Part shown: positions 2,813 through 54,802 of the stretch, piece by piece | How positions within the stretch are numbered: the first letter of the stretch is position 1 | Layout of the letters: each line of letters starts with the position of its first letter | Origin: Thermoanaerobaculia bacterium | Lineage (GTDB): Bacteria; Acidobacteriota; Thermoanaerobaculia; Gp7-AA8 | DNA: 64,000 nucleotides | Assembly: GCA_038230535.1 (NCBI GenBank) | Contig: JBBRNB010000006.1 | Coordinates: forward strand, 10,531 to 74,530 | Reading direction: 5' to 3' | Made by a program: the position numbers and the translations under genes | Notes under the pieces: model-generated | Told to the model about the DNA's origin: nothing | Database searches by the model: none | The model's input: the letters and a program-made list of their open reading frames with translations, nothing else

Positions 2813-5074
2813 ATGTCCCGCGCGTTACTCCTTCGTATCTATATACTTACAGCAATCACGATAGCCGTCGGGGCGGTGATGTGGACCTTCAGCGTGGCGT
2901 CGTTGACAACTGCCGAGGCCTTGTTCTATGCGGGGCTGGTCGCGGTTGCGGCGTGGGTGCGCATCGAAGAGGGGACGCCCGGTTTCGAGGCGGCGGTCGT
3001 ATTCGCGGCCATTCTCATACTGCATGACCCATCGGTCGCATTGATCGCTGTGTTTGCCGGCAGCGCGGTGTACCACGTGGGTCACGATGCCGGCCGCCGC
3101 GTCTTCAGGCTCGATTCGTTGTCCCAGGCTGCAGAACAGGCGCTTTCGTACTACATCGTTGCGCTGCTGTACTCGTCGGCGGTGGCGAAGGATGCGCTGC
3201 CGATGGCGAAGGTCTCGGGCTACATCCTTCTCGTCGTCGGCTATCTCGTCGTGCACTTGCTTTTCACGGCGGTCAGGTATGCGCTCGGGGGACGCGGGGA
3301 CGCTCTCGACGTTCGCCGCATTCTGGCCGTCCAGGGTCAGATGCTGTTCGTGATGACGCCGGTCGTCGCGGCGGAGGTACTCTGCCACTCCCTTTATGGG
3401 ATGCCTGGTTTCGCGCTGGCCTTCCTGCCGGCGCTCGTGATCGCGTACGCGATGCGCAACGAGTCGGACGCGGCGCGGCAGAATGCGGAACTGGTCCGGC
3501 GCAACCGAGATTTGTCCATCCTCACGGAGAGCGCTTCGCAGATCCTTTCAGCCGAGGGCGATCAGGAGACGCTTCGGCGAATGGTGTCACTCCTCGGCCG
3601 GCTGGCCCGGCTGAAGGCGTGCGCGGTCGTGACGTGGGGACCGAACCCTGACACTCCGGCCACGGTCTATCGCCACGGAGCCTGTCAACCGGCCGACCAG
3701 GGGATTCTCGCCTGGGTCGAATCAGCCGGCTTCGCCGAGTCGGCTCCGAGCCGTGCCTTCATCTTTCACAACGATCAGCGGCGCTTCCCGTTGTCCGAGG
3801 GGAACGCCATCCAGGTACTGATCGGCATTCAGACGGTGGAGGTCATCTACGGAGTCCTCATCTACGAGACCGAAGAGCAGTCGATCCTGAAGAGCGGCAG
3901 CATCAATCTCCTGACGTTGCTGGCCAGTCAGACGGGGCTATCGCTTCAGGATCAATTGCTGCGGCGTGAGATGGAAGAGAAGAGGACGCAGCTCGAGGCG
4001 CAGGCGGCGACGAAGTCACTGATCCTCGAGGTCGCCCACGATCTCATCGGCTCGTTTGACGTCGACGCCATGCTGACACGCATCGCTCAGGCAATCAGCA
4101 CGGCGCTCGGTTTCGAGAAGGTGGTCTTCGCGCTCTACGACGTGAAACGTGCGGAGTTCACACGCCGCGCGCACGCCGGACTCGATGATGTTTGGGAGGA
4201 GATGAAAAAGAAGACCGTGGCTTCGAGCGAGATCACGCCATTCTTCGCGGGCGAGTTCAGCGTCTCGAACTCGTTCTTCATCTCGCACACCGTGCTGCAG
4301 CAGAGTGAGCACGGGTTCTTCGTCAGACATGATGACGATCTCCTGCGGCGCCCCGACGAGTGGCATGACAACGACAACCTGATCGTGCCGCTGGTCAGCG
4401 CGGAGGAGATGCTCGGCTACCTGTCCGTACGCGACCCGCATGACCGGCGCGTGCCGAATCTGGAGATGGTGCAGACGCTGGAGATCTTCGCGTTCCAGGC
4501 TGTGTCTGCGCTGCGGTCGGCGAGGCAGTACGATGAGATCCGCCGCCTTACCTTCATCGACGGGCTGACCACCGCGTTCAACCATCGCTACTTTCAGGAC
4601 GCGCTGGCGAAGGAGCTCAATCGCAGCGTGCGCACCAGCCGCCAGTTCGCGCTGGCCATGCTCGACATCGATAATTTCAAACGGATCAACGACACCTTCG
4701 GCCATCCTGCCGGCGACGAGATCCTCAAAGGACTGGTCGACGAAATGATGACGAACGCGCGCGACAGCGATGTCGTGGCACGCTACGGCGGTGAGGAGTT
4801 CGCCATCATCTTCGCCGACACACCAGCAGCGTCGGCGCGCGACGCGGCAAACCGGATGCGTGAGCTGATCGCCAGGCGCGAGCTCACAGTGACATCGATC
4901 GGACGGACGTTGCGAGTGACTGTGAGCATCGGTGTCGCCGTCTATCCCCACGACGGCGCAACGACGGCCGATCTGGTCGCCCGCGCCGATTCCGCTCTCT
5001 ACTACGCCAAGAAGAACGGCAGGAATCAGGTGGCGATGGCAGGGGAGTTGCCGGCGGAGAGTGCGCTGGCTTGA
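2813..5074 (+). CDS. membrane-anchored sensor diguanylate cyclase (N-terminal TM segments, GAF-like region, GGDEF domain)
   Basis: C-terminal RYGGEEFAIIF GG(D/E)EF motif and FNHRYF...LAMLDIDNFKRINDTFGH. Hydrophobic N-terminus. The start was moved to the ATG at 2813 (MSRALLLRIY) because the upstream part of the ORF only translates the G/C-tract repeat. Confidence 0.85.
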   Translation: MSRALLLRIYILTAITIAVGAVMWTFSVASLTTAEALFYAGLVAVAAWVRIEEGTPGFEAAVVFAAILILHDPSVALIAVFAGSAVYHVGHDAGRRVFRLDSLSQAAEQALSYYIVALLYSSAVAKDALPMAKVSGYILLVVGYLVVHLLFTAVRYALGGRGDALDVRRILAVQGQMLFVMTPVVAAEVLCHSLYGMPGFALAFLPALVIAYAMRNESDAARQNAELVRRNRDLSILTESASQILSAEGDQETLRRMVSLLGRLARLKACAVVTWGPNPDTPATVYRHGACQPADQGILAWVESAGFAESAPSRAFIFHNDQRRFPLSEGNAIQVLIGIQTVEVIYGVLIYETEEQSILKSGSINLLTLLASQTGLSLQDQLLRREMEEKRTQLEAQAATKSLILEVAHDLIGSFDVDAMLTRIAQAISTALGFEKVVFALYDVKRAEFTRRAHAGLDDVWEEMKKKTVASSEITPFFAGEFSVSNSFFISHTVLQQSEHGFFVRHDDDLLRRPDEWHDNDNLIVPLVSAEEMLGYLSVRDPHDRRVPNLEMVQTLEIFAFQAVSALRSARQYDEIRRLTFIDGLTTAFNHRYFQDALAKELNRSVRTSRQFALAMLDIDNFKRINDTFGHPAGDEILKGLVDEMMTNARDSDVVARYGGEEFAIIFADTPAASARDAANRMRELIARRELTVTSIGRTLRVTVSIGVAVYPHDGATTADLVARADSALYYAKKNGRNQVAMAGELPAESALA

Positions 5075-5129
5075 TCGCGCGATTGCAAACGCGCTCGGAG
5101 TGTTGCCGCGCTCAGGTCATAATCTCCGC

Positions 5130-6440
5130 ATGAAGCGAATCGCAATCCTCATCCTGCTCATCACCTCATCCGCCTTCGCCCAGTCGCTCGATCAGATGAT
5201 CGACCGCGAGATTCCATCGCTTCTCACGACGTACAAGCAGCTTCATGCCGCTCCCGAGCTATCGATGCAGGAGAAGAACAGCTCGGCGCTCGTTGCCGCG
5301 CGGCTGCGCGAGCTTGGTTACGATGTGACCTATCCGGTTGGCCAGTACAGCGAGCCGGGCGCGACCTGCTACGGTGTCGTCGCCATCATGAAGAATGGCA
5401 ACGGTCCGGCCGTTCTGGTTCGCAGCGACATGGATGCGCTGCCGGTGCTGGAGCAGACCGGTTTGCCGTACGCGAGCAGCGTCCGCGCGAAGAGTCCGTC
5501 CGGAGACGACGTACCGGTGATGCACGCCTGCGGACACGACATCCACATGACCACGCTCCTCGGAACAGCGAAGATGCTGGCTCAACTCAAGTCTCAGTGG
5601 CACGGAACGGTGATACTGATCGGCCAGCCAGCCGAGGAAGTGGTCAAAGGGGCGGAGGGGATGATGCGCGACCGGCTGTACGAGCGATTCCCGAAGCCTG
5701 ACTTCGTCATCGCTCTCCACGACAACGCCAACCTCCCTGCGGGGCAGATCGGCTACACATCCGGCTACTTCATGGCCAGCGGAGACTCGGTCAACGTGAC
5801 GATCCGCGGCATGGGAGGTCACGGCGCAGCGCCGCAGGCGACGAAGGATCCGGTAGTGATGGCGGCGCAGTTCATTAATGCGCTGCAGACGATCGTGAGC
5901 CGCGAAGACTCGCCGCTGGACCCGGTGGTCGTCACGGTCGGCTCGATCCACGGCGGGACGAAGCGAAACATCATTCCCGACGAGGTTCAGCTCTTGATGA
6001 CCGTTCGAACGTACAAGCCCGAGGTGCGCAAACGCGTGCTGGCGTCAATCGAACGGATCGCGCGCGGCGTGGCGATGGCGGCGGGCGTACCGGAGGATCG
6101 TGCCCCGATCTTCGAGCTGGTGCCGGGTGAATCAGTCGAAGCGACGTACAACGATCCGGCGCTGACCGAGCGCCTGGCCGCGGCGTTGACGCGCGGGATG
6201 GGCGCCGCGAATGTGATCCGTATCGATCCGCTCATGGTCAGCGAAGACTTCGGCCGTTTCTCCCCCGACCACAAGATCCCCCTCACCATGCTCAACCTCG
6301 GCGCCGTCGACCCCGCAAAGATCGCCAGCGGCCAGCGCCTCCCCTCACTTCACTCGTCCGGCTTCGCGCCCCTTCCCGACCCGACGCTGCGTGGAGGGAT
6401 CAAGGCGATGACGCTGGCGGTGATGGAGTTGTTGCATTAG
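5130..6440 (+). CDS. secreted M20D-family amidohydrolase (hippurate hydrolase/aminoacylase-like)
   Basis: Signal peptide MKRIAILILLITSSAFA. MHACGHDIHMTTLLGTAKML metal-binding motif of the M20/M20D peptidase family. ATG at 5130. Confidence 0.85.
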   Translation: MKRIAILILLITSSAFAQSLDQMIDREIPSLLTTYKQLHAAPELSMQEKNSSALVAARLRELGYDVTYPVGQYSEPGATCYGVVAIMKNGNGPAVLVRSDMDALPVLEQTGLPYASSVRAKSPSGDDVPVMHACGHDIHMTTLLGTAKMLAQLKSQWHGTVILIGQPAEEVVKGAEGMMRDRLYERFPKPDFVIALHDNANLPAGQIGYTSGYFMASGDSVNVTIRGMGGHGAAPQATKDPVVMAAQFINALQTIVSREDSPLDPVVVTVGSIHGGTKRNIIPDEVQLLMTVRTYKPEVRKRVLASIERIARGVAMAAGVPEDRAPIFELVPGESVEATYNDPALTERLAAALTRGMGAANVIRIDPLMVSEDFGRFSPDHKIPLTMLNLGAVDPAKIASGQRLPSLHSSGFAPLPDPTLRGGIKAMTLAVMELLH

Positions 6441-41006: not shown

Positions 41007-41135
41007 TTCTGGGTCTCGTGGTTGCCGAGCTGCTCGCATAGGTTGCCAGGTTGCTGGGTTGCTCGGTACGCTGCGCGGAATGGTTACTTCCAAGAACGGG
41101 CAACCTGGCAACTCAGCAACCCAGCAACCAACCAA
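41000..41135. repeat. GTTGCTGGGTTG / CAACCCAGCAAC-family hairpin; the right arm overlaps the cinA start region
   Basis: GGTTGCCAGGTTGCTGGGTTGCTCGG...GGCAACCTGGCAACTCAGCAACCCAGCAACCAACC. Confidence 0.7.
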
Positions 41136-42366
41136 TGCAGCATCGATCATCGCCATCGGCTCCGAGATGCTCGGGCCGGCTCGTGTCGACACCAACTCTC
41201 TCAAAGTCACGGCTGCTTTCGAGTCGTTCGGGATTGGCGTTATCCGCAAGAGCGTAGTTGGTGATACGCAAGGCGAATTGGTCGACGAGATCCGCTACTC
41301 GCTGGCGCACGCGGACATCCTCATCACCTCGGGCGGTCTCGGGCCAACCGAGGACGACATGACCCGCGAAGCGCTCGCCGAAGCGCTGGGACTGAAGATG
41401 GAGGTCGATACGGGGATCATCGAGCGGCTCGAGAAACGCTTCGCTGCTCGAGGCTGGAAGATGCCGGAAGTCAACAAGCGGCAGGCGAATGTCTTCATCG
41501 GCCAGAATACGCTCACGAACGAGCGGGGGACGGCGCCCGGCTTTCACATCGGGCAAGAGGGCAAGCATGTCTGGGTTTTCCCTGGCGTGCCGCACGAGCT
41601 GGAGTGGATGGTGGCCACGTACCTGACTCCGTGGCTGGCGTCGATCACGTCCGGACAGTCTCGCTTCCGCCGTGTCCTGAAGATCGCGGGGATGACAGAG
41701 TCGGGCGTCGAGGAGCACTTGAAGCCGTACTACACCGCCCATCCGGAGCCGCTGACGATCCTCTCCACCATGGGGCAGATCGAGTTGCACCTGGCCGCCG
41801 ACGGCGCCGAGGCCGAGGCACTGGCGCGGATCGGCGCGCTCGAGGGCGAACTGCGTGAGCTCTTCGGCGACAAGATCTTCGGCGCTGATGACGACACGCT
41901 GGAGGCAGTTGCCGGCCGGATACTGACGGAGCGTGCCGAGACCGTTGCCACTGCGGAGTCGTGTACCGGTGGTCTGATGGCATCGCGTATTACCGATGTA
42001 CCCGGCAGTTCGGCGTACTTCAAGGGTGGCGCCGTCTGCTATACGGCTGCCGCGAAGACGGCGCTGGCCGGTGTCGATCCGGTACTCATCGCGGAGCACG
42101 GCGAAGTTTCCGAGGCTGTAGCGATCGCTCTCGCTCGCGGTGCGCGCGAGAGGTTCGGTACAACGTACGGTGTCGGAATCACCGGCATCGCTGGGCCAGG
42201 CGGTGGCACCGAGGAGAAGCCGGTCGGTACCGTTCACATCGCGGTAGCCGGCCCCGAGGGGTACAAACATCGCAAGATGTTGTGGCCGCTGGAGCGCAGC
42301 CTCTTCAAACGCATCACCACACAATCGGCGATGGATCTGTTGCGGTTGTTCATCGTGCGCACGTGA
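41080..42366 (+). CDS. cinA: competence/damage-inducible protein CinA (MocF-like domain plus CinA C-terminal domain)
   Basis: IIAIGSEML...ILITSGGLGPTEDDMTREALAEAL and a C-terminal TAESCTGGLMA motif. First in-frame ATG is at 41080, so the first roughly 19 aa (MVTSKNGQPGNSATQQPTN) are encoded by the repeat arm. Confidence 0.8.
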   Translation: MVTSKNGQPGNSATQQPTNAASIIAIGSEMLGPARVDTNSLKVTAAFESFGIGVIRKSVVGDTQGELVDEIRYSLAHADILITSGGLGPTEDDMTREALAEALGLKMEVDTGIIERLEKRFAARGWKMPEVNKRQANVFIGQNTLTNERGTAPGFHIGQEGKHVWVFPGVPHELEWMVATYLTPWLASITSGQSRFRRVLKIAGMTESGVEEHLKPYYTAHPEPLTILSTMGQIELHLAADGAEAEALARIGALEGELRELFGDKIFGADDDTLEAVAGRILTERAETVATAESCTGGLMASRITDVPGSSAYFKGGAVCYTAAAKTALAGVDPVLIAEHGEVSEAVAIALARGARERFGTTYGVGITGIAGPGGGTEEKPVGTVHIAVAGPEGYKHRKMLWPLERSLFKRITTQSAMDLLRLFIVRT

Positions 42367-42575: not shown

Positions 42576-45077
42576 CTATCGTTTCGTAAGCTCGGTGAGA
42601 AGGCCTTGTAGAGCCTCCGCGACGCGAGTCAGCGTTTCAGGACGTGGCATCGGAATGGCGAGAAAGAGATCACCGTTTTCGTCGCGTCGTGCTTCGATCG
42701 GGCGGCGTGGGCGAGTCTCTTCGCTGTTCGATTGTGTTGGTAGTGACGTGGTGAATTGTTGCAGGAGGGCGACTCCGCTCTCGATGAGTTGCGCGAGCGG
42801 TGAGGACGCCATCGCGGGTTCCGGGATTTCGAGTACGACAGGCGCGGTCTCTTCGAGGGGCACGGTGTCTTCCGGTGCGGGCATTTCGACAGGCTGTGGT
42901 TGCGGGACCGCCCTTGTCACGCTCTCGACATCTTCGAGGAGGCGTCCCAGACGGCTCTTGCCGAGGAAGACTTCCGTCTCGCCGCCGTCGAGGACACCGG
43001 CGAATAGCGACTTCTTGAAGCGGAGGACGGTCAGCATCCCCTGTTCGATCGTTCCCTGCGCGACTAGATTGATGACACGTACCGGACGAGCCTGACCGAT
43101 CCGGTGTACGCGTCCGATGCGCTGCTCCAGGACGGCCGGATTCCAGGGCACATCGACGTTCACCACGACGCTGGCGTTCTGGAGGTTGAGCCCCACGCCG
43201 CCTGCGTCGGTGGAGAGGAAGATGCGGCACTCGGATTCGGCGCGGAAGCGGTCGACGAGGTCCCTTCTCTGCCGTGTATCGATGCCGCCGTGAAAGAGAA
43301 CGTGCCCCCAGCCGCGTTCCGCAAAACTCCGCTTCAGAAGCTCGTGCATCCGCAGCCACTCGCTGAAGACGACGACCTTCACGCCTTCTTCCTGCAGTAC
43401 CTCGTCGAGGATGGTCATTAATTCACCAACCTTGGTGCCGTGATCCGCGCGTTCGTCAAGGAGGTATGTGCTGTCGCAAACCATGCGCATGTACTGCAGA
43501 GCCACCAGAAGCTGCCGCTGGTCGGCGTCGGAAAGGAAGTGATAGCGTTTCCATTTGGCGGCGATGCGGGCCACCGTCTCGCGATGCTCCGCGTGCAGGG
43601 AGGCCTGCTGCGGCGTAATCGGGATGAAGTAGTGCTTCTCGATGCGCTCCGGTAGCTGTTTCAGCACCTCGCTCTTCCGGCGGCGGATGACGACCGATTG
43701 CAGGCTCTTTGTAACCTTGCCGAGGTCGCGGTATCCGACCACGCGGCCCTCCTCGAGCACCTGGTGGTTCTCGAGGAAGCGGAACGTTGGACCGAGACGG
43801 AAAGGGTCGATGAACTCGACGATAGAGACGAGCTCCTCGATCCGGTTTTCCAGCGGCGTGCCGGTCAGCACGACGGCATATGGCGAAGCGATTTGCTTGA
43901 TGCTGCGGGCTGCGCGAGTGTTCCAGTTCTTGATCCGCTGGGCCTCGTCGAGAATGACGATGTCCGGCGCCAGGCGACGGATGAATGCGAGATCGTAGTG
44001 GACGGTGTCGTAGTTCGTGATCTTGAAGAAGGTGTCGGCGGCAAAGAGGTCATCACGCACACGCCGTCCCCCCTGGATGACGGTGACGCTACGTTCGGAG
44101 AAGGCGCCGATTTCCCGTTCCCACTGATGCTTGAGCGACGCCGGACAGATGATCAGGACCCTGGCGACGCCGAGGTTCCGAGCCATGATCTCCGCGGCGG
44201 CAATGGCCTGGATCGTCTTACCGAGCCCCATTTCGTCGCCAAGAAGACTCCTCCCGGCGCGGGCGGCAAAGAGGGCTCCTTCCTTCTGATAGTCATACAG
44301 AGGCTGCTTCAGGATGCCGTCGAGAGCGCGGCTGGCGATGCCATCCGGGAAGGCAGTGCGAATGGTCTCTTCCCGCCGTTTGACGTCTCGAACTTCGGCG
44401 ACGAACGGCAGCACGTCCTCATACATCCGCAGCTCGGGATCGATCGTCCGTGCCTCTGCCACAAAACGATCGAACGCTCCGAAACCGAACGGGGTAAGCC
44501 GGCTGTTGCGATCGAAGTGGCGCTCGGCCAGGCGGATGACTGCCCGCGGACACTTGCTGCCGGCGCGGAAGCGCACGTGGCGTTGCGGTCCGTACTCCAG
44601 GCTGATGCTGCTGTACTCCGGCTCGTAGCCCGCGGCGAGCGCCTGTTTCGCACCGCGCTTCGCCAGGACGTTCGCCAGTGTGAACTCGATGTGTTTGCAG
44701 GTGCCGAGATGGTTCGTCCGGAAGTCGGCGCAGGAGCAGTAGTTTCGACCGAGCTCCGTGTCGCGAATGGCGACGCGATAGGTGTTCTTACTGGCCGGAT
44801 TGGTGACACGAAAGTCCGAGAAGATAGGATGGTCGCCGAGGTTCTCCAGCTCGAATTTCTGCTCGCGTCCGAACTGACGCCTCAACTCGCGCTGCCACGC
44901 TTCGAGAGACAGCTCAGGCGGCTGGTGCAAACGCGAGACACGTTGCACATCCGGCTTTTTGCGGGGCGCTTTTGCAGCTCGTTTCATGTGAGGAGGAGAG
45001 TACACCGAGGGCGTACTCGAGGTAGCGCCGGCGGCTCGCCGGCTGGACCGCCGCCGGCCCGGCGGCGCCACACTCAA
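42576..45077 (-). CDS. SNF2-family helicase with an N-terminal SWIM zinc finger
   Basis: SWIM motif YRVAIRDTELGRNYCSCADFRTNHLGTCKHIEF. SNF2 motifs DEMGLGKT, DEAQRIKN and a C-terminal helicase domain. Confidence 0.9.
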   Translation of the reverse strand: MSVAPPGRRRSSRRAAGATSSTPSVYSPPHMKRAAKAPRKKPDVQRVSRLHQPPELSLEAWQRELRRQFGREQKFELENLGDHPIFSDFRVTNPASKNTYRVAIRDTELGRNYCSCADFRTNHLGTCKHIEFTLANVLAKRGAKQALAAGYEPEYSSISLEYGPQRHVRFRAGSKCPRAVIRLAERHFDRNSRLTPFGFGAFDRFVAEARTIDPELRMYEDVLPFVAEVRDVKRREETIRTAFPDGIASRALDGILKQPLYDYQKEGALFAARAGRSLLGDEMGLGKTIQAIAAAEIMARNLGVARVLIICPASLKHQWEREIGAFSERSVTVIQGGRRVRDDLFAADTFFKITNYDTVHYDLAFIRRLAPDIVILDEAQRIKNWNTRAARSIKQIASPYAVVLTGTPLENRIEELVSIVEFIDPFRLGPTFRFLENHQVLEEGRVVGYRDLGKVTKSLQSVVIRRRKSEVLKQLPERIEKHYFIPITPQQASLHAEHRETVARIAAKWKRYHFLSDADQRQLLVALQYMRMVCDSTYLLDERADHGTKVGELMTILDEVLQEEGVKVVVFSEWLRMHELLKRSFAERGWGHVLFHGGIDTRQRRDLVDRFRAESECRIFLSTDAGGVGLNLQNASVVVNVDVPWNPAVLEQRIGRVHRIGQARPVRVINLVAQGTIEQGMLTVLRFKKSLFAGVLDGGETEVFLGKSRLGRLLEDVESVTRAVPQPQPVEMPAPEDTVPLEETAPVVLEIPEPAMASSPLAQLIESGVALLQQFTTSLPTQSNSEETRPRRPIEARRDENGDLFLAIPMPRPETLTRVAEALQGLLTELTKR

Positions 45078-49585: not shown

Positions 49586-49945
49586 AGCTTTGTGGTTAAT
49601 TGCACTTTGTTGTCTGCGCTTCGCGCGTTGTCGGTTGCCGGTTGTCTGCGCTTCGCGCGTTGCCGGTTGCCGGTTGTCTGCGCTTCGCGCGTTGCCGGTA
49701 GTCGGTTGTCTGCGCTTCACGCGTTGCCGCACCGAGAGGGGCGCGAAGGTGTAACCATCGCCCGACGGGCCGCTAACGCCCAAAGGGCAGACAACGTGCG
49801 AAGCGCAGACAACGCCCAAAGGGCAGACAACGCGCGAAGCGCAGACAACGCCCGAAGGGCAAACAACGCCCAAAGGGCAGACAACGCGTGAGCGCAGACA
49901 ACGCCCGAAGCGCAGATAACCGACAACGCGCGAAGCGCAGACTAC
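49586..49945. repeat. cargo-less palindromic element of the GCGCGAAGCGCAGACAAC family (tandem-repeat arms in inverted orientation around a roughly 50-bp centre)
   Basis: Left arm (GTTGTCTGCGCTTCGCGCGTTGCCGGTTGCCG)x4, right arm (GCAGACAACGCGCGAAGCGCAGACAACGCCCAAAGG)x4. Same family as the arms flanking the IVS-protein gene at 6458-7155. Confidence 0.85.
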
Positions 49946-51417: not shown

Positions 51418-51465
51418 CGAAACCTGCTGGCGCGATGTCCTAATCCCAGCTTTACAATCGCAAAG

Positions 51466-51927
51466 ATGAACTACTGGTTAATGAAGTGCGAGCCGTCCGC
51501 CTATACGATCGATGACCTCAAACAAGACGGCAAGACGAGTTGGGAAGGGGTCCGCAACTATCAGGCGCGCAACTTCATGCGCGATGGGATGAAGCGTGGC
51601 GACCGCGTGCTCTTCTACGCCTCGAATGCCGATCCTTCCGGCGTCACGGGCGTGGCCGAGATCAGCCGCGAAGCCTACCCCGATCAGTTTGCCCTAAAGA
51701 AAGGGCACGAGTACTACGACGAGAAGTCGACCGCGGAGAACCCCATCTGGTACAGCGTCGACATCGGCTTCGTGGAGAGGTTCCCGCACATCGTGCCGCT
51801 GGATACGCTGAAGTCGGCGCGCGGTCTCGAAGAGATGGTGGTGACGAAGAAGGGGTCGCGTCTTTCGATCCAGCCGGTGACGAAGAGTGAGTTCGAGATC
51901 GTGGTGAAGCTGGGCCGTGCGAAGTGA
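51466..51927 (+). CDS. EVE (PUA-like) domain protein
   Basis: [18 protein letters not shown]...[26 protein letters not shown] is the canonical EVE N-terminus. ATG at 51466. Confidence 0.85.
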
Positions 51928-52433
51928 CACGTTTCGAAGTCGTTCGAGCCGACATCACAAAGCTCGCGGTCGATGCGATCGTGAACGCAGCGAACTCGTC
52001 GCTCCTTGGCGGAGGCGGCGTCGACGGCGCGATCCACCGCGCGGCCGGCCCTGATCTCGTCGCCGCTTGCCGGCTCCTCGGGGGCTGCGCCACCGGCGAC
52101 GCGAAGATCACCCCCGGCTTTCGTCTGCCTGCGAAGTACGTCATCCACACCGTCGGCCCGGTCTGGCGTGGAGGCACCAACGATGAGCCGGAGTTGCTGG
52201 CCTCCTGCTACCGGCGCAGTCTCGAGGTGGCGATCGCGAACGGCGTCCGCTCGATCGCATTCCCCGCCATCAGTTGCGGCATCTTCGGCTATCCCCTCGA
52301 TGCCGCCGCGGAGATCGCGGTAAACGAGACGCGACGAGTGCTCGGCGAGAGCGATGCCGTCGATCAGGTTCTCTTCGTCGCGTTTGGCGAGGAGGTTCGG
52401 TTTGTTCTGGAGCGTTCTTTGCGTTTGTTGTAG
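51924..52433 (+). CDS. macro domain protein (O-acetyl-ADP-ribose deacetylase/MacroD-like)
   Basis: [24 protein letters not shown] and ...[15 protein letters not shown] motifs. GTG start overlaps the EVE stop (GTGA). Confidence 0.85.
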
Positions 52434-52585
52434 GGCTGGCCGGCAGTCCGCTGTCGGGTTGTGTACTTTGTCTCCAACTCCCGACACCACGACCCCCGAC
52501 AGCCGAGAGCTGATAGCCGAGAGCCCACTGCCAACAGCCAATAACCAGCTCCCACGCACGCCCCCGGTGTTACTCTAGATAAGTC

Positions 52586-53320: not shown

Positions 53321-54802
53321 TCATCGCTTTGGGCACAACGACGCCCATTGCCGGAGCTCCGAGGCGCGCGAGGTGACGATCGTATGCGCCAGCGAGCGCG
53401 AAGCGTTCCAGGTGCGTGGATCGCTTTCGAATTGCGCATCGCGATCGAGGAGACGTTTTGCGATGCACGGCCGTTCACCTGGTAGCGAGCTCAATCCCTG
53501 GACGAGCGCGGGGGTGGCGTCGCTGCTCAGCAGCAGTGCGTAAGAAGTGTCGAGCGCACGCCGGCCGCCGGCCGCTCGGGCCAGATTCGTGCGCGTGATG
53601 AGGTCGTCGGGGCTGAGGGTGTGCAGCGTCATCACGAGAATGAACCCCGCCGCGAGGGCGCCGATCATGAATTGGGGGCGACGGCCGCGGAGCACCGTCA
53701 GCGCGAACCAGAGGAGAAGCACGCCGAGCCAGATCATGAATGCCGTGGTGTAGAGACGCAGCTCCGTCATCCCGTACTCCTCCGTGTAGATCCGCATCCT
53801 CTTCATCGCCGAGACGATGATGACGAATACGAGCACGATCTGGAGCGCCGCCAGCGATCGGAACATTGCCAGCGCACGGGGGAAGCGTTTGTCGATCAGC
53901 CATTCGCTCCAGAGCAGGAGCGGTACGACGATGGCGGCAACGGTGACCAGCTCGAAGAATCCGCTCCGTGCGTAGTCGGCGTACGTCAGTTTCGGATCGA
54001 GTCTGATCAGCGCCGCGCCGCCGAAGAGGTAACGGAACTGCACGGCGACGAAGGCGGCGAAGAGCAGGTCGATGGCCGCGGTGGCGGTGTTCGTCTCGAT
54101 CGCGCCGAGGCGGAGGAAGTCGGGCTTCATGACCGAGGGGAGTGTCCTGCCGCGCACCAGGCTCCGCAGGAAGCCGCCGCAGACTCCGGCGATGGCGATC
54201 GCCAGAAAGATATGTCCGATCACCTTCGGGATATCGATGGCGAAGACATCGCGGATGATTGCGCTGAACGCGGCGTCAGCCGACATCAGCAGCGCTCCGA
54301 GGAGCAGCAACGCAGGCGTGGCGATGAGGAGACCACGGAAAATCGCCAGCCCGCGCCGGCTCAAACGTCCGAGGGGCACCTGCCGCCAGGAGATATCCAG
54401 CAGCGAGAACTGCACGGTACCCAGCAGTGACTCCACGAACGTATAGAGGAGCGCCGCGCAGTAGTGCAAGATCCCGGCCGCCCAGGCACGCACCTCTTTT
54501 GGTCCGAGAGCCAGAAGGCCGATGAAGGCGAAGAGAAGGATGATGTCGACAGCCGTGAACACGCTCGAGTCGCGCCACGCCAGTCCGGCCGCTGCCGCGA
54601 TTGCGCCGATCGCCGGAATCGCCAGAGACGCCTTCGGCTGCGGCCTGAACCGCTGCAACAACGGGATCGTGACCGCGAAGAGAAGCACCACCCAGATCGA
54701 GGCGTTGATCCCCCAGGGTCCCGCGTGCAGAAGCGCGTCCCCAAGGACGCCGAGAACGGCGGCGGTGATGAAGAGGCGGGAGGAGGAGGTTGTCTCTTGC
54801 AT
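53321..54802 (-). CDS. hypothetical large polytopic membrane protein (about 12 TM)
   Basis: 493-aa ORF with ATG at 54802, hydrophobic throughout. No motif recognised. Confidence 0.6.
   Translation of the reverse strand: MQETTSSSRLFITAAVLGVLGDALLHAGPWGINASIWVVLLFAVTIPLLQRFRPQPKASLAIPAIGAIAAAAGLAWRDSSVFTAVDIILLFAFIGLLALGPKEVRAWAAGILHYCAALLYTFVESLLGTVQFSLLDISWRQVPLGRLSRRGLAIFRGLLIATPALLLLGALLMSADAAFSAIIRDVFAIDIPKVIGHIFLAIAIAGVCGGFLRSLVRGRTLPSVMKPDFLRLGAIETNTATAAIDLLFAAFVAVQFRYLFGGAALIRLDPKLTYADYARSGFFELVTVAAIVVPLLLWSEWLIDKRFPRALAMFRSLAALQIVLVFVIIVSAMKRMRIYTEEYGMTELRLYTTAFMIWLGVLLLWFALTVLRGRRPQFMIGALAAGFILVMTLHTLSPDDLITRTNLARAAGGRRALDTSYALLLSSDATPALVQGLSSLPGERPCIAKRLLDRDAQFESDPRTWNASRSLAHTIVTSRASELRQWASLCPKR

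Follow-up and report, generated by a model that had tools for sequence, protein, structure and literature searches.

A pair of adjacent genes lies on the forward (+) strand of the window, as the whole analyzed stretch of 64,000 nucleotides from a Thermoanaerobaculia bacterium is called here. The first gene encodes an EVE (PUA-like) protein, whose N-terminus is [10 protein letters not shown], and the second encodes a macrodomain hydrolase of the MacroD/YmdB type (Table 1). The letters at the junction, ...GCG AAG TGA / GTG ACA..., constitute a 4-nt stop/start overlap. On a public contig (L089) that encodes proteins identical to those of the window, an independent gene caller also predicted both genes, again with this overlap. 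The original prediction had placed an EVE/PUA-like and a MacroD-like domain protein at these coordinates, joined by a GTGA overlap. The domain calls are borne out by the matches to Pfam and NCBIfam, and the overlap by the reading of the sequence and the independent gene call. The start codon of the macrodomain gene is backed by two relatives (L027 and L088), because they carry ATG at the equivalent position. GC3 is 0.83 for the EVE gene and 0.78 for the macrodomain gene, and the codon-position GC is typical for coding DNA. An antisense ORF of 281 aa (51714-52559) is a shadow ORF.

Table 1. Features of the EVE-macrodomain locus, in positions of the window.
Feature	Position	Strand	Description	Basis
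TACAAT hexamer, -10-box-like	51453..51458	+		alignment of relatives
EVE (PUA-like) gene	51466..51927	+	153 aa, ATG start	Pfam EVE (PF01878), E = 2.8e-52
GTGA overlap	51924..51927	+	EVE stop TGA and macrodomain start GTG	sequence read
MacroD/YmdB-type macrodomain hydrolase gene	51924..52433	+	169 aa, GTG start	Pfam Macro (PF01661), E = 3.7e-49
Spacer downstream of the macrodomain gene	52434..52585		152 nt	sequence read

Junction, putative promoter and flanking genes

The TACAAT hexamer ends 7 nt upstream of the EVE ATG, with no Shine-Dalgarno sequence between them. It is invariant in all seven aligned loci, including one (L007) whose remaining upstream flank is unrelated. A generic sigma-70 promoter scan called no promoter at this position, and the box was recognized only through the alignment of relatives. 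The resemblance to a -10 box and the position suggest that TACAAT is a promoter element and that the EVE-macrodomain transcript is leaderless or nearly so. The 4-nt overlap is also present in L001, L004, L007, L027, L088, and L089, the last of which encodes the window's own proteins, and it is probably a translational coupling junction. Besides the window, at least six loci of distinct sequence retain this overlap. The locus L017 differs in having a spacer of ~70 nt, and the loci from Rifleibacteriota have a 1-nt spacer. In the spacer downstream of the macrodomain gene, no convincing intrinsic terminator was found; the pattern matches were weak and the RNA fold was not significant (z = -1.44). 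Over 44-60 kb, all matches to Rfam families were below the gathering score.

Upstream of the pair, truA and a gene for a 249-aa protein without a family match are in divergent orientation. Downstream are the genes for a 241-aa membrane protein and then a DUF4153 protein. The gene calls and family matches agree with the description in the original prediction of a compact, isolated operon between the upstream gene of truA and membrane-protein genes. The surrounding genes are housekeeping genes, and the locus is part of the syntenic core rather than an island. Transferase, nuclease, and methyltransferase domains were absent from the genes scanned over ~34.9-63.9 kb, which are part of the window's genes; to that extent, the predicted lack of a nearby nuclease, methyltransferase, or ADP-ribosyltransferase holds. 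The scanned neighbors of the syntenic relatives contained no transferase domain either. No nuclease gene is adjacent to the EVE gene, whose product is a single-domain protein. PADLOC returned no match for the EVE protein, the macrodomain protein, or the products of the immediate neighbors. Across the whole window, no second copy of the EVE or macrodomain gene was found, nor any rof gene.

Classification of the two proteins

EVE proteins that evolve slowly and stand alone occur widely, from bacteria to humans (THYN1). To our knowledge, neither a ligand nor a role has been defined by experiment for any bacterial member of this group, and therefore any conserved operon partner is a possible clue.

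The match of the window EVE protein to the Pfam EVE domain scores 177 bits (cutoff 23) and covers profile positions 1-144 of 145. Its closest relatives of solved structure are PSPTO5229, PP5205, and THYN1, with e-values of 2.6e-39 for 2eve (PSPTO5229) and 7e-31 for 3eop (THYN1). Besides the window's own protein, 119 relatives were listed, with 77-92% identity; 117 of them are 148-159 aa long, and the remaining two have 174 and 205 aa. The window EVE is of the slow-evolving THYN1/PSPTO5229 type: standalone, single-domain, and in a non-defence context. The pocket aromatic residues W26 and Y83 are aligned to W26 and Y82 of 2eve, which are named as pocket residues for the flipped base (PMC7897488). 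The window EVE thus resembles PSPTO5229 (PDB 2eve), PP5205, and human THYN1 in its full-length single EVE domain and in the conserved W26 and pocket Tyr, but it differs from them in having Ala where the FYHS motif has an almost invariant His. This residue, Ala52, is shared by all sampled EVE proteins from Acidobacteriota. The substitution from His52 to Ala was considered as a pair-specific change and rejected, as it is also seen in unpaired EVE proteins from Acidobacteriota. No residue change specific to the paired EVE proteins was observed, and there was no sign of co-adaptation. Relatives of the L017/L027 type are without the loop bearing the pocket Tyr. The window protein is predicted to be a PUA-like reader that would accommodate a flipped modified nucleotide in its aromatic pocket, most probably in RNA or DNA.

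With 239.3 bits, the macrodomain protein passes the 200-bit cutoff of the NCBIfam equivalog NF001664 'O-acetyl-ADP-ribose deacetylase', and it stays under the respective cutoffs of the remaining YmdB-subtype equivalog models. It is similar to the solved structures of MACROD2 (1e-51) and E. coli YmdB (1.3e-51). The MacroD signature consists of Nx(6)GG[V/L/I]D and G[V/I/A][Y/F]G, with a catalytic Asn/Asp pair and His (PMC8120803). The corresponding motifs are intact in the window protein: N24-x6-GGVD (31-34), H38, and GIFG (119-122). Judged from its sequence, the protein is a plain YmdB/MacroD orthologue with the full set of catalytic motifs. The original prediction had named a plain housekeeping orthologue with no functional link to the EVE protein as an outcome that would count against its proposal; a plain orthologue is what the equivalog score, the e-values near 1e-51 for YmdB and MACROD2, and the motifs indicate.

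Compared with E. coli YmdB, human MACROD1 and MACROD2, and Streptomyces coelicolor SCO6450, the window protein has the same single-domain architecture, size, motifs, and Asn/Asp/His residues. Its second motif, GIFG, has Phe where YmdB has Tyr126, a substitution permitted by the motif definition. Unlike these proteins, for which the cited literature reports no such arrangement, it is coupled to an upstream EVE gene. As a member of this family, it may deacetylate O-acetyl-ADP-ribose, the sirtuin product. Family membership also predicts that it could strip mono-ADP-ribose from Asp/Glu esters and phosphate-linked ADP-ribose from RNA or DNA ends. Bacterial MacroD homologues reverse the KptA-made ADP-ribosylation of RNA ends (PMC6582358; PMC8120803). 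In human cells, the removal of thymidine-linked ADP-ribose needs TARG1, for which other hydrolases are no substitute (PMC8501950). The window protein matches the MacroD/YmdB models and motifs, not the TARG1/DarG class with its Lys-based catalytic set.

These class assignments bear on a possible role in defence or counter-defence, in which the pair would reverse base ADP-ribosylation of DNA or RNA in a DarTG-like manner and the EVE protein would sense modified foreign nucleic acid. Some type IV restriction and toxin-antitoxin modules do contain fast-evolving EVE domains (PMC7641849), and macrodomains such as DarG act as antitoxins (PMC8120803). However, the window EVE belongs to the slow-evolving housekeeping type, and the macrodomain is of the MacroD type, while the removal of thymidine-linked ADP-ribose is specific to TARG1/DarG (PMC8501950). 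In addition, no ADP-ribosyltransferase, nuclease, or toxin was found among the scanned neighbors, PADLOC gave no match for either protein, and the locus is core and syntenic. The defence role is largely refuted and very improbable. The reversal of base ADP-ribosylation, which the original prediction had offered as an example, fails on the same point of macrodomain class; TARG1/DarG-type enzymes remove thymidine-linked ADP-ribose and are not redundant with MacroD types (PMC8501950).

Distribution and conservation of the gene pair

In a set of 80 EVE loci at species level, drawn from more than 20 phyla, three (L008, L017, and L027) have a macrodomain gene within 5 kb of the EVE gene. All three are from Acidobacteriota, and eight other Acidobacteriota loci in the same set have no macrodomain partner. 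The genes downstream of EVE in the 80 loci belong to 70 different Pfam families. Other partners are lineage-specific as well: Dus in five Bdellovibrionota loci and a PLP enzyme in two Nitrospiraceae loci. Enzymes of tRNA modification are seen near this type of EVE gene, with Dus as a recurrent partner and with truA in divergent orientation near the pair in the window.

Metagenomes were screened with a junction-spanning DNA pattern, which was used in reverse-complement form starting CCGTC and in which a one-letter separator stands between variable gaps. This screen revealed 102 true EVE-macrodomain pairs, 97 of the Acidobacteriota type and five from Rifleibacteriota. The weak EVE half of the pattern gave six random matches, and therefore ~10,000 MacroD genes are roughly estimated to have been screened, with pairs at ~1%.

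The L017-type pairs from Acidobacteriota show identities of about 56-67% for EVE and about 62-75% for the macrodomain protein. The flanks of the pair are partly rearranged between relatives. In one NJ tree, the pair-bearing EVE proteins cluster together. In a second, larger tree, those from Acidobacteriota fall in one Acidobacteriota clade, and the L017-type group is sister to all other Acidobacteriota EVE proteins. Within Acidobacteriota, the pair may have been gained once and then lost in part, or gained twice; both fit the trees. The pair from Rifleibacteriota has the same gene order and is built from unrelated EVE and macrodomain lineages. As the sequence comparisons indicate, the pair is conserved in one Acidobacteriota (Thermoanaerobaculia-like) clade of soil bacteria and has a separate second origin in Candidatus Rifleibacteriota. 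The original prediction had proposed neighborhood conservation as its test, and the adjacency is kept beyond this genome in both groups.

Genes downstream of the Acidobacteriota pairs are rof, or genes for a receiver domain and a DUF4349 protein. The rof gene follows the macrodomain gene in L001, L004, and L088 and in 32 of 71 metagenome pair loci, and overlaps it in L001. It is missing at the corresponding site of the window, though present in many close relatives. The Rifleibacteriota pair has other neighbors and no rof; its EVE gene is preceded by an Smr gene and a hypothetical gene. No third gene common to the pairs of the two phyla was found.

The frequent third gene encodes Rof, an inhibitor of Rho. 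In one view, the operon groups small stress regulators of RNA metabolism by shared conditions: the macrodomain protein would bind and dampen RNase III, as in E. coli, and a regulatory RNA would be the ligand of the EVE protein. In E. coli, YmdB regulates RNase III in response to stress (PMC8120803; PMC4329070; PMC4222554), and EVE genes of this cluster in beta- and gamma-proteobacteria are linked with 6S RNA (Bell et al., PMC7641849). On the other hand, rof is absent from the window and from the Rifleibacteriota pair, and neither rnc nor rho is linked. The control of RNase III by YmdB has been demonstrated in E. coli only, and the window macrodomain retains the full catalytic motifs, which that role does not need. 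A stress-regulatory operon of this kind is decidedly unlikely.

A chimeric consensus query was compared with 5.8 billion protein clusters, and no genuine EVE-macrodomain fusion was found among the best matches. The sole two-domain match (P0272) was rejected; it comes from the contig L088, where a frameshift or deletion joins adjacent genes with an ATGA overlap. Ten long EVE representatives contain an M64 peptidase, DUF5655, PurK, or no extra domain, and none contains a macrodomain.

Possible function of the pair and known systems

The best explanation (probability about 0.6) is a self-contained two-gene operon that unites two ordinary, independently acting proteins, with lineage-specific co-expression for RNA/NAD housekeeping. 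Transcription would start at the conserved TACAAT box and yield a leaderless message. The macrodomain protein would be translated by termination-reinitiation at the GTGA overlap, and both proteins would therefore be made together in fixed proportion. The pairing would have arisen in the ancestor of the Acidobacteriota clade, followed by vertical inheritance, and independently in Rifleibacteriota. In our judgement, the two genes would be linked because small genes for RNA/NAD housekeeping or stress are regulated together, and not as a dedicated read-and-erase machine, and we infer that the EVE and macrodomain proteins do not cooperate directly. Retention of the pair over this divergence, the usual 4-nt overlap, and the second assembly in another phylum are hints of selection for co-expression, and possibly of joint function. 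Rarity and the absence of fusions do not disprove cooperation between the two proteins.

A cooperative function would be conceivable on RNA: the EVE protein would recognize a modified or ADP-ribose-tagged RNA and hand it to MacroD, which would remove the ADP-ribose. Examples of such a substrate would be a 5'-phosphate-linked ADP-ribose left by a KptA/Tpt1-type enzyme, or a modified tRNA, and equimolar coupled translation would aid complex formation. The conservation of the pair with its 4-nt overlap through a deep clade and the independent assembly of the same order in Rifleibacteriota are consistent with this function. So is the reversal of KptA-made RNA-end ADP-ribosylation by bacterial MacroD homologues (PMC6582358; PMC8120803), and so is the fact that, in other lineages, EVE genes of this type are paired with Dus, which encodes a tRNA enzyme. 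The two proteins could conceivably share an RNA substrate, since genes for tRNA enzymes (Dus and truA) lie near EVE genes and MacroD acts on RNA ends that carry ADP-ribose (PMC6582358).

Against this handover stand the lack of a fusion among the best database matches, of a writer gene in the genes scanned nearby, and of a pair-specific sequence signature. Of the 80 EVE loci, 77 lack the pair, as do ~99% of MacroD loci, and a large subclade keeps the macrodomain gene though its EVE protein has lost the pocket-tyrosine loop. Moreover, two independent juxtapositions are roughly what chance would give among thousands of independent EVE contexts (rough estimate). Reading and erasing on RNA by the pair is rather unlikely. 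That EVE-MacroD, often with rof, is a genuine module, in which a THYN1-type EVE protein reads an ADP-ribose-derived or other RNA mark and MacroD erases it, is likewise unlikely and a little more so. The independent action of two co-expressed proteins is the preferred reading, and a link of the pair to RNA or NAD metabolism is possible.

Literature searches joining EVE and macrodomain terms found no description of the pair, in line with the original prediction, whose author knew of no such described system. The main EVE census (PMC7641849) and its searchable supplements nowhere mention macro, macrodomains, or ADP-ribose, and a survey of NAD/ADP-ribose systems nowhere mentions EVE or PUA. In that census, Bell, Wolf and Koonin (2020) described alpha-proteobacterial EVE operons associated with cytochrome c biogenesis, and beta- and gamma-proteobacterial contexts associated with cell division and 6S RNA (PMC7641849). 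The window locus is similar in that a slow-evolving EVE gene lies in a lineage-specific conserved housekeeping operon (PMC7641849); it differs in the partner, a macrodomain, and in the hosts, Acidobacteriota and Rifleibacteriota. The DarT-DarG and SirTM-macrodomain systems are likewise operons of two genes, one of them a macrodomain gene that is tightly coupled to the other (PMC8120803). Their partner is an ADP-ribosyltransferase or a sirtuin, whereas that of the window is a reader-type EVE protein. The window macrodomain is also of the MacroD class, neither DarG/TARG1 nor SirTM-associated, and its context is not that of toxin-antitoxin or defence systems.

Being rare, bound to certain lineages, and unsupported by signatures, the association should be regarded as a weak lead rather than as a new system. 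If they did cooperate, the EVE and macrodomain proteins would form a link by which the reading of modified bases is tied to reversible RNA ADP-ribosylation, a field without established physiological substrates in bacteria. If the pair reads and erases an RNA mark as a module, this would be the first biochemical role for the widespread slow-evolving bacterial EVE proteins. A MacroD partner of EVE is now seen in two phyla.

Gene pair, flanks, and putative promoter

The EVE gene and the macro-domain gene were read in the sequence exactly where the original prediction placed them, with the GTGA stop/start overlap it described. On a public contig that encodes identical proteins (L089), the two genes and their overlap were called independently in the same way. 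The start codon position of the macro gene is ATG in relatives. A 281-aa antisense ORF was rejected as a gene, being a shadow ORF of the GC-rich coding region.

Table. Coordinates of the EVE-macro pair and of features in the window and in fetched DNA loci (L-numbers).
Feature	Locus	Position	Strand	Description
EVE gene	window	51466-51927	+	153 aa, starts [10 protein letters not shown]; Pfam EVE E=2.8e-52, whole profile
Macro gene	window	51924-52433	+	GTG start, 169 aa; Pfam Macro E=3.7e-49
Stop/start overlap	window	51924-51927	+	GTGA, 4 bases common to EVE stop codon and macro start codon
TACAAT box	window	51453-51458		ends 7 nt before EVE ATG
EVE residue A52	window	51619-51621		FYHS -> FYAS
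Spacer after macro	window	52434-52585		152 nt
Tandem repeat array	window	49609-49729		uppS-truA intergenic; 32-nt unit x3.8, 95% identity
Tandem repeat array	window	49759-49920		uppS-truA intergenic; 18-nt unit x9.1, 79% identity
CinA gene	window	41059-42366	+	MoCF_biosynth, CinA_KH, CinA domains
SNF2 helicase gene	window	42576-45077	-	833 aa, adjoins cinA
DUF4153 gene	window	53321-54802	-	membrane protein
rof	L001	6983-7225		PF07073; overlaps macro by 4 nt
rof	L004	6983-7225		PF07073
rof	L088	1419-1655		PF07073
Joined pair (P0272)	L088	191-1069		artefact, 1.8-kb contig
Loop-deleted EVE	L017	5001-5408
Loop-deleted EVE	L027	2-391
EVE before Dus	L020, L034, L043, L053, L056	~5001-5450		next gene starts at 5443-5492
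Smr-domain gene	L158	4164-4667	-	small protein
Gene without family match	L158	3129-3977	-	282 aa
Schlafen AlbA_2 / Fic-like C-terminal gene	L158	8610-10097	+

One flank consists of core genes (TgpA-like, pdxJ, ABC-F ATPase, cinA, SNF2 helicase, rseP, dxr, cdsA, uppS, and truA) and a gene for a secreted-looking 249-aa protein, and the opposite flank includes genes for a 241-aa membrane protein, a DUF4153 protein, an M1 peptidase, and dnaE. A scan of genes around the pair gave no ADP-ribosyltransferase, sirtuin, nuclease, or methyltransferase domain, and for the scanned genes the earlier statement that such partners are lacking (a nuclease, methyltransferase, or ADP-ribosyltransferase) is correct. 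No PADLOC defence model was matched by EVE, macro, or their immediate neighbours. A role in defence or base de-ADP-ribosylation is highly improbable. No Rfam family was detected at the locus.

In an alignment of 85 nt around the EVE start, the TACAAT box is invariant, and it is kept in a relative whose upstream flank is otherwise unrelated (L007). There is no Shine-Dalgarno sequence between this box and the EVE ATG. Because of these two features, the pair is probably transcribed from a promoter of its own, as a message with little or no leader.

Several other features of the region were recorded. Two tandem repeat arrays lie between uppS and truA. The DUF4153 gene is present in the window and L089, and is absent from the otherwise syntenic loci L001 and L004; thus, it represents a local insertion or loss. 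CinA, encoded ~9 kb from the pair, is associated with NAD salvage and the metabolism of ADP-ribose. The core of the SNF2 helicase matches PADLOC models generically (ZorD, DpdE). Neither CinA nor the helicase is linked to the EVE-macro operon.

Protein families of EVE and macro

Both family assignments of the original prediction were supported, and both proteins fall clearly within known families. The EVE protein, matching the Pfam profile over its whole length, belongs to a slow-evolving standalone EVE class with many environmental relatives at 77-92% identity, whose source names point to Thermoanaerobaculia (Acidobacteriota) as the host group. Its closest solved structures are Pseudomonas PSPTO5229 (2eve, 2.6e-39), PP5205, and human THYN1. 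W26 and Y82, singled out as pocket residues of 2eve (PMC7897488), correspond to W26 and Y83 in the window protein. Residue 52 is Ala in all sampled Acidobacteriota EVEs, macro-paired or not, and His in 68 of the 79 other EVEs of the same alignment.

By sequence, the macro protein is classified as a MacroD/YmdB-type enzyme. It scores 239 bits with the NCBIfam equivalog model for O-acetyl-ADP-ribose deacetylase, above the curated cutoff of 200, and matches human MACROD2 and E. coli YmdB with E-values of ~1e-51. Both signature motifs of the class as defined in PMC8120803 are present (N24-x6-GGVD34 and GIFG119-122), as is H38. MacroD-class substrates are O-acetyl-ADP-ribose, Asp/Glu-linked mono-ADP-ribose, and phosphate-linked ADP-ribose at RNA and DNA ends, the last activity being common to bacterial homologues (PMC8120803, PMC6582358). 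Thymidine-linked ADP-ribose is removed by TARG1/DarG-type macrodomains, for which other types do not substitute (PMC8501950), and therefore the proposed reversal of base ADP-ribosylation fits a different class from that of the window protein. The database protein P0271 is an artefact, an E. coli YmdB carrying an internal duplication.

Distribution of the pair

Full synteny and the 4-nt overlap are conserved in the close relatives L001-L006 and L008 (EVE 85-87% identical). The pair is kept in more distant members of the lineage while the flanks change: L007 (EVE 80%, macro 68%) has a different upstream flank, L027 (64%, 67%) has an ATGA overlap, and L017 (66%, 64%) has a spacer of ~70 nt. A pair-bearing EVE subclade (L017, L027, L105, L129, and L155) has a ~16-residue deletion, which removes the loop with the pocket tyrosine (2eve Y82, window Y83). 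The neighbour-joining trees, built on ~150 residues, disagree on a single origin of the Acidobacteriota pairs.

Using an alignment of diverse EVEs, 80 species-level loci from >20 phyla were fetched. Only L008, L017, and L027, all from Acidobacteriota, have a macro gene within 5 kb of EVE; eight other Acidobacteriota loci (Vicinamibacteria, other Thermoanaerobaculia, and Blastocatellia) and the remaining loci had none within this distance. The genes directly downstream of EVE, taken from 80 of the fetched loci, represent 70 different Pfam families. Other partners are recurrent: Dus (tRNA dihydrouridine synthase) beside EVE in five Bdellovibrionota loci, and a PLP-dependent enzyme in two Nitrospiraceae loci (L037 and L044). 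Thus, EVE swaps operon partners freely. In the Bdellovibrionota loci, Dus is on the same strand, ~2-36 nt downstream. The Dus pairing and the proximity of truA to the window EVE suggest that this EVE class may be connected with tRNA.

Metagenomes were searched with a degenerate DNA pattern joining an EVE C-terminal motif, a 75-135-nt gap, and MacroD N-terminal motifs. Among the loci in hand it matched seven pair-bearing loci and no non-pair locus, and missed L004, L005, L008, L017, and L088; further lineages may be missed because it needs a GAC codon, limited spacing, and strict motifs. In the metagenomes it matched 108 stretches, 102 with EVE directly upstream of macro. In the six that lack EVE, the low-information EVE half of the pattern matched at random; judging from their number, ~10,000 MacroD genes were effectively screened. 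A tightly coupled EVE is thus roughly estimated for ~1% of MacroD genes; the collection is rich in soil samples, which favours Acidobacteriota.

Pair-bearing Acidobacteriota references were nearest to 97 of the 102 pairs, and the loop-deleted L017 type was the best match for 36 of the 102. The other five, with GC ~0.51, came mainly from anaerobic digesters; their identical or near-identical NCBI proteins are labelled Candidatus Rifleibacterium or Ozemobacteraceae, with consecutive accessions for the two genes. In Rifleibacteriota, EVE retains the usual His and falls outside the Acidobacteriota EVE clade in the tree, and the macro has no specific kinship with Acidobacteriota macros. The Rifleibacteriota pair, spaced by 1 nt, was therefore assembled independently, a second time, with the two genes in the same order. 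The adjacency is accordingly conserved outside this genome, within the Acidobacteriota lineage and in Rifleibacteriota, but not across bacteria (3/80 EVE loci); a lack of conservation beyond this genome had been named as a refuting outcome in the original prediction. In the Rifleibacteriota locus L158, the small Smr-domain protein and the 282-aa protein are encoded on the same strand ahead of the pair, and the Schlafen AlbA_2 / Fic-like protein is encoded nearby.

Cooperation or independent action

Real cooperation of EVE and macro on RNA is doubtful. The overlap kept through a deep clade and the pair's second origin leave some room for it. No genuine fusion, no pair-specific EVE residue, and no common accessory gene were found. 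For fusions, a chimeric consensus EVE+macro query, against which two-domain proteins should rank top, was compared with 5.8 billion protein clusters. The only two-domain match, P0272, is an artefact of a frameshift or deletion joining the adjacent pair. Long EVE representatives carry other domains and no macro domain. No residue separates paired from unpaired EVEs. Co-adaptation is further opposed by the large L017-type subclade, which keeps the macro partner though its EVE is without the pocket-tyrosine loop.

No accessory gene is common to both lineages. The Rho-termination modulator gene rof lies downstream of macro in many close relatives, and follows it in 32 of the 71 metagenome pair loci with enough sequence; the alternative in Acidobacteriota pairs is a receiver-only response regulator plus DUF4349. 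In Rifleibacteriota, a gene without family match is directly upstream of EVE, with the Smr-domain gene beyond. The overlap retention and the second origin likewise leave some room for a grouping of small RNA-metabolism regulators that includes rof, but rof is absent from the whole window, where only the spacer remains after macro, and this explanation is less likely still.

The best-supported reading, with a probability of about 0.6, is a lineage-specific, translationally coupled operon of two independently acting proteins. Its own promoter would drive the operon, translational coupling would ensure co-expression, and the proteins would act separately as a modified-nucleotide reader and an ordinary MacroD hydrolase. 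Two independent juxtaposition events were detected; by a rough estimate, a few would be expected by chance, since the genes around EVE vary extremely and both EVE and MacroD commonly occur in single copy in very many lineages.

The EVE-macro pairing is not mentioned in the EVE census (Bell, Wolf and Koonin 2020, PMC7641849) and its searchable supplements or in a wide-ranging survey of NAD/ADP-ribose systems, and literature searches joining EVE with macro-domain terms returned no paper on it. The operon context is thus undescribed, in agreement with the original prediction, and similar in kind to the lineage-specific EVE operons known from earlier work.
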